This document shows positions 62,396 to 62,440 of a stretch of 64,000 nt of DNA, piece after piece. The notes beneath the pieces were generated by a model. That model saw only the letters and a program-made list of their open reading frames with translations. It made no database searches and was not told the DNA's origin. The stretch is from a virus (lineage: Duplodnaviria; Heunggongvirae; Uroviricota; Caudoviricetes), in IMG/VR virus record IMGVR_UViG_3300027887_000330, one strand, 5' to 3'. The position numbers were made by a program, and so were the translations under genes. Position 1 is the stretch's first letter. Every line of letters starts with the position of its first letter.

Positions 62396-62440
62396 TGGTC
62401 GGGGTGAGAGGACTCGAACCTCCGATAACGTGCTCCCCGA
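62396..62440 (-). ncRNA. Truncated tRNA-like element (acceptor stem plus T-arm minihelix with encoded CCA)
   Basis: TCGGGGAGCACGTTAT-CGGAGG-TTCGAGT-CCTCT-CACCCCGA-CCA. Lacks D and anticodon arms. 4 nt upstream of tRNA-Leu(UAG) in the same orientation. Confidence 0.35.

Follow-up and report, generated by a model that had tools for sequence, protein, structure and literature searches.

Organization of the tRNA and rsr locus

The 64,000-nt stretch of DNA analysed here (hereafter, the window) covers the part of a large lytic-type phage genome devoted to replication and nucleotide metabolism, with genes for a DNA polymerase, RNR, NAD-ligase, helicase, exonuclease, ThyX, Rad52, a Lon-like protease and a LAGLIDADG endonuclease. 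The LAGLIDADG homing endonuclease ORF lies at 23555-24490 on the minus strand. The same strand carries a tRNA array interrupted by a gene for a Ro60/Rsr protein. In the direction of transcription, an ORF for a 204-aa acidic protein (ORF204) is followed by 40 nt with a small hairpin, a 45-nt tRNA-like element (62396-62440; hereafter, the stub), a 4-nt spacer CAGT (62392-62395), tRNA-Leu(UAG) (62305-62391), 68 nt with two further hairpins, and rsr (60793-62235), the start codon of which lies ~160 nt downstream of the stub. Directly after rsr come a terminator-like hairpin GGGGGACTTCGGTCCCCC with a T-run (60762-60779), then tRNA-Leu(CAA), tRNA-Leu(UAA) and an intact tRNA-Pro(UGG) (together 60491-60751), two small ORFs, tRNA-Leu(GAG) and tRNA-Ser(UGA). 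All six tRNAs of the window encode CCA, as does the stub, and the other gaps between tRNAs of the array are 3-4 nt long, with which the 4-nt spacing between the stub and tRNA-Leu(UAG) agrees.

The tRNAs around rsr (59651-62391, minus strand) are mostly of the long-variable-arm type and comprise four tRNA-Leu isoacceptors, a tRNA-Ser and one tRNA-Pro. The tRNA cluster of mycobacteriophage Myrna (L281:5199-6327) is likewise rich in Ser and Leu, and tRNA-Leu(UAG) and tRNA-Leu(UAA) also follow rsr in locus L059 (4806-5367). Upstream of the tRNA/rsr unit (63144-63953 and beyond), the window encodes a coiled-coil protein, a DUF2491 protein and an NMT1_3-like protein, an unusual set for a phage.

By sequence comparison, the 480-aa product of the gene downstream of tRNA-Leu(UAG) is a Ro60/Rsr protein with TROVE and vWA domains. 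The TROVE domain scores 30.9 bits (cut-off 23) and the VWA_2 match 24.2 bits, under the curated cut-off of 27, and residues 42-475 align with the crystal structures of Ro60 from Thermus phage phiLo (9KOP/9L5Y; E = 1.7e-10). Rsr has 6907 homologues; among the 120 listed, TROVE (PF05731) is the Pfam domain, and for several the source database gives the name Ro ribonucleoprotein.

A first-pass annotation of this DNA had described a small hairpin and a palindrome upstream of the stub (62441-62480) and suggested that the operon promoter may be located there. Both structures are real: the hairpin TAACCT/AGGTTA, with the loop gtttcact, occupies 62456-62475, and the palindrome TTAATTAA (62477-62484) includes the stop codon of the upstream ORF. 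The promoter was not borne out, as no sigma-70-like promoter was found in the 40 nt preceding the stub. No terminator separates ORF204 from the stub, and rsr is followed by a strong one, which makes co-transcription of the stub with tRNA-Leu(UAG) and rsr probable.

Structure of the stub

Read as RNA from 62440 to 62396, the stub has the sequence U-CGGGGAG-CACGUUAUC-GGAGG-UUCGAGU-CCUCU-CACCCCG-A-CCA and is followed by CAGU. The sequence reading places a U at position -1 (62440), followed by the acceptor 5′ strand CGGGGAG (62433-62439), a 9-nt linker CACGTTATC that stands in place of tRNA positions 8-46/48 (62424-62432), the T-arm (62407-62423), the acceptor 3′ strand CACCCCG (62400-62406), the discriminator A (62399) and the encoded CCA (62396-62398). 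The T-arm is canonical: its strands GGAGG (62419-62423) and CCTCT (62407-62411) form a 5-bp T-stem with the G53-C61 pair, and its loop TTCGAGT (62412-62418) fits TTCRANY. In the tRNA register, the seven-position acceptor stem CGGGGAG/CACCCCG contains six Watson-Crick pairs and an A6·A67 mismatch. The D-arm and anticodon arm are absent, the acceptor 5′ strand and the T-stem being separated by the 9 nt of the linker, and the stub received neither an ARAGORN call nor an Rfam report at E ≤ 10, tRNA model included. The first-pass description of a tRNA-like minihelix with an encoded CCA, devoid of D and anticodon arms and located 4 nt upstream of tRNA-Leu(UAG), was exact in sequence and coordinates.

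RNAfold returns the described acceptor/T-arm fold at -14 kcal/mol. This energy is at the level of shuffled sequences (z = -0.36; 58 of 200 shuffles fold as well), so that the signal resides in the tRNA consensus motifs rather than in the folding energy. The chance of finding, no more than 26 positions from the T-stem, a 7-mer with at most one mismatch from a perfect acceptor partner is ~2.3%. The stub is identical in independent assemblies (L001, L002 and L068) and is thus not an assembly artefact.

Predicted fate of the stub RNA

Synthetic tRNA minihelices, consisting of an acceptor stem, a T-arm and CCA, are substrates of RNase P, the CCA-adding enzyme and some aminoacyl-tRNA synthetases. 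The stub resembles them in its two-helix stack, 3′ NCCA and U(-1), but is a natural genomic element whose helices are separated by a 9-nt bulge and which contains an A·A mismatch. Bacterial RNase P uses the acceptor/T-stem stack, U(-1), A73 and CCA, and inspection of the stub reveals the corresponding features of a minihelix substrate, namely a 12-bp acceptor/T-stem stack, a 3′ RCCA and a pyrimidine at position -1. Release by RNase P, proposed in the first-pass annotation, is plausible on this basis: the enzyme would cut at the 5′ end of the stub (62440/62439) and at that of tRNA-Leu (62392/62391), and 3′ trimming back to CCA would then give an RNA of ~44 nt. The same annotation also invoked RNase Z. 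For the bacterial enzyme, however, encoded CCA acts as a known anti-determinant, so that cleavage of the stub precursor by RNase Z is doubtful. Judging from these features, the stub probably yields a processed by-product RNA.

The stub sequence matches tRNA-Pro

The last 28 nt of the stub (GGAGGTTCGAGTCCTCTCACCCCGACCA) are found, without a single change, in more than 120 bacterial genomes from many phyla. Nearly all of these exact matches (114 of 121) fall inside tRNA-Pro genes, with the anticodons UGG (93), CGG (18) or GGG (3). All 114 genes begin with CGGGGTG, to which the stub conforms at six of seven positions. The element can be described as tRNA-Pro positions 1-7 with a T6-to-A change, followed by CACGTTA and by positions 47-76 unchanged; C1-G72 and A73, both typical of tRNA-Pro, are present, and the 37 tRNA-derived positions contain a single difference from the tRNA-Pro consensus. 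The intact tRNA-Pro(UGG) of the phage is not the source: its sequence is unlike that of the stub, and its different acceptor, CTAGGTG/CACCTAG, rules out that the stub is a copy of it.

Searches of IMG/VR with protein words or with the exact 30-mer recovered no close relatives. A gapped pattern for tRNA-Pro-type minihelices matched 13 IMG/VR sequences, all of which are normal tRNAs, att sites or odd tRNA-like genes, with no homologue of the stub in an rsr context. One minihelix candidate, in L112, proved to be a YrlA with a long acceptor-like hairpin. A separate observation concerns a 54-nt element with an acceptor stem (7/7), one hairpin, a T-arm and ACCA, and without a D-arm (L270:465-518, the same as L281:6166-6219; and L273:8001-8054). 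The annotations of Mycobacterium phage Myrna (gene 85) and Phabba list it as 'tRNA-Ser', with a length of 80 nt, and as 'tRNA-OTHER', respectively, and an amber-suppressor-like tRNA is its neighbour.

The 3′ ends of tRNA genes are also where integrative elements place their att sites, and the first-pass annotation had proposed, as one possibility, that the stub is an attP-like remnant, to be checked against the tRNA 3′ ends of candidate hosts. Under this explanation, the 3′ part of a host tRNA-Pro would have been carried by the phage as an integration core, or left as an excision scar. The comparison gave the match in question, 28-30 nt of exact identity between the 3′ half of the stub and bacterial tRNA-Pro 3′ ends across many phyla. 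Similar short pieces of tRNA-Pro in other viral contigs are indeed att sites, as in L276, where one directly follows a tyrosine integrase gene. The context of the stub is of a different kind. Genuine tRNA-Pro att remnants (L150, L175, L215, L252, L262, L271 and L276) start in the anticodon or variable loop and have no 5′ strand, and none of the five genuine att-type remnants in bacterial loci has a matching one; the stub does have a matching acceptor 5′ strand, an arrangement with a probability of ~2% by chance, and this strand is independently conserved in the sister strain L282 described below. No integrase was detected among the 24 window ORFs scanned, which included all ORFs of at least 300 aa, the window covering all but 14.7 kb of the 78,686-bp contig. 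The genes of the window are those of a large lytic-type phage, the stub sits in register inside the tRNA array, in the middle of an operon and not at a phage/host junction, and the nucleotide composition is uniform across the region. The sequence match expected under the attP reading is thus present, but its context is not, and we regard this origin as very unlikely. Further genuine tRNA-Pro att remnants were recorded in L272 and L277; several are in Peribacteria and Gracilibacteria genomes, and the L276 locus spans 5906-6936.

The sister strain L282 has another tRNA-Pro gene at the stub position

L282 was identified through a homologue (91% amino acid identity) of the ORF upstream of the stub. 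It is a second strain, recovered from the wetland sample that also yielded L001, and the sole diverged comparator with DNA. The flanks of the stub region are closely similar in the two strains: identity amounts to 52 of 55 positions in the left flank (stop codon to CGGGG) and to 93% in the right flank (tRNA-Leu into rsr), and the N-termini of the Rsr proteins share 64 of 65 residues. The interval enclosed by these conserved flanks measures 41 nt in the window and 248 nt in L282. At the position of the stub acceptor 5′ strand, L282 carries CGGGGTG, a perfect partner for the CACCCCG of the window, followed by 24 nt, a 77-nt tRNA-Pro(UGG), an 11-bp direct repeat of TTAACTAACCT, an HNH_2 fragment and tRNA-Leu(UAG). 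The tRNA-Pro(UGG) is complete and has the acceptor CTCGGTG/CACCGAG, unlike that of the stub; their 3′ halves are identical at 23 of 30 positions. The HNH_2 remnant is a 32-codon ORF, the match of which to the endonuclease domain (E = 4.9e-7, 29.9 bits) lies at the C-terminal end of that domain.

In the anticodon loop of the tRNA-Pro(UGG) of the L282 slot (6614-6913), CCTGGGA, position 33 is C rather than U. L282 has additional tRNAs farther upstream (Asn, His, Trp and Thr). A 74% Rsr relative (P0002) is encoded on a 12,088-bp contig of ENA ERZ1426844, in which a gap of 240 nt precedes rsr. Gene spacing on a 9,983-bp contig (gap of ~245 nt) is the same as in the window arrangement.

Differences between the two strains are distributed unevenly with respect to structure. 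The functional elements keep theirs: pair 5:68 of tRNA-Leu(UAG) is U·G in the window and G·U in L282; the first of the two hairpins in the rsr leader (CCCTCCgttaGGAGGG, 62278-62293) has CCCTCC/GGAGGG in the window and CCCCT/AGGGG in L282, a compensatory change; and the second (CCGGCGtttCGCCGG, 62256-62270) differs in its loop only. The pattern suggests that the leader hairpins (62256-62293) have a function in how rsr is processed or regulated. The hairpin upstream of the stub is also present in L282, with one change, in the loop. The stub itself is absent from L282, and the only change that separates its 5′ strand from CGGGGTG, T6 to A, breaks a pair.

The same comparison bears on whether the stub belongs to a larger leader structure, in which CACCCCG would pair with a distal CGG(C)GGTG (62499-62492) in a tRNA-like fold of ~101 nt, or an 8-bp stem (62502-62495/62261-62254) would enclose both the stub and tRNA-Leu. 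The minimum free energy structure of a 119-nt stretch does use the distal pairing, a 281-nt fold has z = -2.2, and a covariance model of tRNA-topology Y RNAs (R2, see below) aligns weakly over 62399-62499 (15.4 bits, E = 0.17). The 119-nt fold is nonetheless no better than that of shuffled sequences (z = 0.14), and the distal strand falls in a run of Gly codons of the upstream ORF; its chance expectation is ~1.6% genome-wide and higher in G-rich codons. Neither the distal strand nor CACCGGCG is kept in L282, the ORF of which ends GGAGGCGGAGGAGAC. Both the distal-strand fold and the long-range stem were rejected, judged no stabler than shuffles and not conserved in L282, and a larger leader ranks as the most improbable of the explanations considered.

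Y RNAs of related rsr loci

We analysed 144 loci encoding Rsr relatives at 44-63% identity. Nearly all carry Y RNAs on the rsr strand. The 5′ part of these RNAs consists of a GGYGNAG motif, an inner stem, a GTTACTTC box and an optional V hairpin, and the 3′ part of a T-arm abutting a 7-bp closed acceptor-like hairpin, TA, a D-arm and a TTCGC..TTCCC strand, a layout that corresponds to the YrlA architecture of Chen et al. 2014 (PMC4201824). When 43 of these RNAs were aligned, compensatory changes were present in 26 of the 30 predicted pairs. The covariance model built from this alignment (R1) yielded 296 hits in the loci at E ≤ 1e-3, all but one on the rsr strand; at least one hit was obtained in 123 of the 144 loci, and of the 21 loci without a hit, at least 11 end within or close to rsr. 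At gathering thresholds, Rfam called none of the Y RNAs of the clade in the 20 loci scanned. In the closest relatives (59-63% identity), the order of elements is fixed, with a promoter followed by a short Y RNA, a YrlA, a Shine-Dalgarno sequence and rsr. This order matches the arrangement in the experimentally studied phage phiLo, in which two Y-like RNAs (Yrl1/2) are located just upstream of Ro60 (PMC12135203).

Tandem arrays of three to six Y RNA copies, in which full YrlA-type RNAs are mixed with short YrlB-like ones, are frequent among the loci (L004-L147; for example, L020:2186-2801, L046:1342-2930, L130:1695-2930 and L139:2218-2971). In three loci, a tmRNA gene occupies the Y RNA position immediately upstream of rsr (L009:2388-2741, L113:2615-2972 and L119:788-1145). 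A group I intron was noted in L113 (5733-5964) and a C4 antisense RNA in L012 (5749-5837).

A group of ~100-kb phages encodes Y RNAs of a second, unpermuted topology: acceptor 5′ strand, TA, D-arm, a hairpin with the Ro60 motifs, which replaces the anticodon arm, TTACTTC, V, T-arm and acceptor 3′ strand (L030:4771-4894, L018:4727-4859, L044:4828-4962, L022:4561-5240 and L147:~4440-4615). In an alignment of 33 such sequences (A4), all seven acceptor pairs covary, with one broken cell in 231. In the published descriptions consulted, YrlAs are circularly permuted, so that the acceptor forms a closed loop and the RNA lacks a free 3′ end at this stem, and we found no tRNA-topology Y RNA with an open, covarying acceptor stem described in the YrlA literature consulted. 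R2 was built as a tRNA-topology model from 33 Y RNAs.

The rsr gene of the window is, as judged with these models, one of the few without a recognizable Y RNA nearby, with none of either topology in the 64 kb. Run with filters off on both strands, R1 retrieved isolated T-arms only, those of the six tRNAs and of the stub, and R2 retrieved only real tRNAs (13-29 bits, with the Ro60 hairpin skipped) in addition to the weak alignment at 62399-62499. Motif regexes detected no assembled Ro60-binding module near rsr. Neither R2 nor the regexes thus gave any sign of a Y RNA of the other topology hidden in the window. A weak R1 hit at 4787-4857 on the plus strand (12.3 bits, E = 0.25) is short-Y-RNA-like and covers the closing and inner stems only; located on the opposite strand and 56 kb away from rsr, it is probably due to chance. 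Other rsr loci without a recognizable Y RNA nearby are L003, L017/L142, L038/L042, L059 and L062. In L003, which encodes a 62% Rsr relative and has no YrlA, a leader hairpin at 3928-3985, GTGT-GGGGAG...ACCCCG-CACA, is followed by ATACTTCCCC; its GGGGAG...ACCCCG core is common to the stub, and the hairpin may be a degenerate Y RNA.

The stub and YrlA-type RNAs

The stub has points of likeness to YrlA-type Y RNAs (PMC4201824; bioRxiv 10.1101/312249; PMC12135203): it adjoins rsr on the same strand, within the ~4 kb in which such RNAs are found, and it has a T-arm stacked on a 7-position acceptor-type stem. It is unlike them in having no D-arm, inner stem or Ro60-binding helix, and in that its sequence is that of tRNA-Pro. 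A miniaturized YrlA was a tempting interpretation, given that GTTATC in the linker recalls the GTTACTTC box and that TCGGGG/CCCCGA recalls the TTCGG(T)GG/CCCCGAA closing stems of the closest relatives. It was discarded: R1 and R2 align the T-arm only, the 3′ half is exactly tRNA-Pro, and L282 lacks the element. In the R1 alignment, the match is confined to 62407-62423 (9.7 bits, model positions 49-65). The stub contains no 5′ Ro60-binding motif (GNCGAAN0-1G; GGYGNAG in the clade), no bulged closing helix and no 3′ TTCCC strand, and the invariant Y RNA columns of alignments A3 and A4 are absent from it, none of them being aligned by either model. Rsr had been named in the first-pass annotation as a potential partner of the stub; the neighbouring gene does encode Ro60/Rsr, but the stub carries none of the Ro60-binding features of the Y RNAs of the clade.

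These observations are also pertinent to the proposal that the stub encodes a functional tRNA 'top-half' RNA, which would act as a decoy or substrate for tRNA-directed enzymes (RNase P, the CCA-adding enzyme or anticodon-independent nucleases) or serve in trans as a surrogate for the tRNA-like module of a Y RNA, for an Rsr that would have lost its Y RNAs. The position is suggestive, directly upstream of rsr and on the same strand, where related loci keep their Y RNAs, and the conserved parts of those RNAs include a T-arm stacked on a 7-bp acceptor-like stem. The 64-kb window has no Y RNA of either topology, the sequence of the stub is almost undecayed, and in M. smegmatis a YrlA is cut by RNase P and given CCA (PMC4201824). 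Yet the stub lacks what is invariant in the Y RNAs of the clade, namely the GGYGNAG/GNCGAA 5′ motif, the TTCCC 3′ strand, the inner stem and the D-arm, and a tether without a Ro60-binding end cannot tether. Its acceptor has a derived mismatch, and the loci L017, L038, L042, L059 and L062, also without Y RNAs, contain no such element. The processed, functional tRNA mimic suggested by the first-pass annotation finds no support in conservation either, as L282, the only close comparator, has no minihelix. A functional top-half RNA appears unlikely overall. A more specific version, that a 44-nt CCA-ending top half released by RNase P is used by the phage, either as the equivalent of a Y RNA effector module for an Rsr without Y RNAs or as a decoy for host enzymes or defence nucleases that recognize the acceptor/T-arm half, is somewhat less likely still. 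A strain-specific function is possible but unsupported, with only one diverged comparator at hand.

Probable origin of the stub by turnover of a tRNA-Pro slot

The interpretation that we favour, and consider likely on the strength of the sequence comparisons, is that the stub is a remnant of a bacterial-type tRNA-Pro gene that formerly occupied this position of the array. The decayed tRNA gene, which the first-pass annotation had listed among its options, is supported by the exact tRNA-Pro identity of the 3′ half, by a 5′ strand that is one change away from tRNA-Pro, and by the complete tRNA-Pro in the slot of L282. Taken together, the tRNA-Pro match and the gene in L282 indicate that the slot is a tRNA-Pro gene position under rearrangement. 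An ancestral tRNA-Pro gene (CGGGGTG...CACCCCGACCA) would have been the first in the array. In the lineage of the window, the D-arm and anticodon arm (positions 8-46) would have been lost, and both acceptor strands, the T-arm and CCA would have persisted, with 9 nt between the 5′ strand and the T-arm; in the lineage of L282, everything after the 5′ strand would have been replaced by a segment with another tRNA-Pro and an HNH endonuclease gene, which has since decayed. Given that the 3′ halves of the stub and of the L282 tRNA-Pro are identical at no more than 23 of 30 positions, two orders of events would fit, a full gene followed by deletion or an older stub followed by replacement in L282. The single-base difference of the stub from the tRNA-Pro consensus could reflect either a recent event or constraint. 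One point is left unexplained by a tRNA-Pro remnant, and would have to be a coincidence: the stub lies in the slot where Rsr relatives keep tRNA-like Y RNAs, in a region without any.

The slot would represent a rearrangement hot spot, probably driven by homing-endonuclease activity, as the HNH fragment in L282 suggests. Homing endonucleases are known to turn over phage tRNA regions, SegB of T4 being an established case (PMC2330249), and a slot with a different gene and an HNH remnant, as in L282, resembles such cases. Like the truncated and pseudo tRNA genes of phage tRNA clusters, the stub keeps the register of the array in which it lies and can be traced to a recognizable tRNA. It departs from the usual truncated phage tRNA genes in that the deletion left exactly the coaxial acceptor/T-arm half with CCA, which gives it the look of a designed minihelix, and from the T4 SegB case in that no endonuclease gene remains in the slot of the window.

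As one more decayed tRNA gene in a phage tRNA cluster, the stub itself would matter little, although it is a neat natural case in which an internal deletion has spared exactly the acceptor/T-arm 'top half' and CCA; were its RNA exploited by the phage, it would constitute a natural 'minihelix' gene. The slot documents the turnover of a tRNA-Pro position between co-existing strains, with a homing-endonuclease fragment present. Of more value than the stub is its Y RNA context. The Ro60/Rsr proteins of this clade almost always travel with tRNA-like Y RNAs, and a phage rsr gene situated among tRNA genes without a Y RNA is a rare arrangement, which offers a test case for a Ro60 lacking Y RNA.
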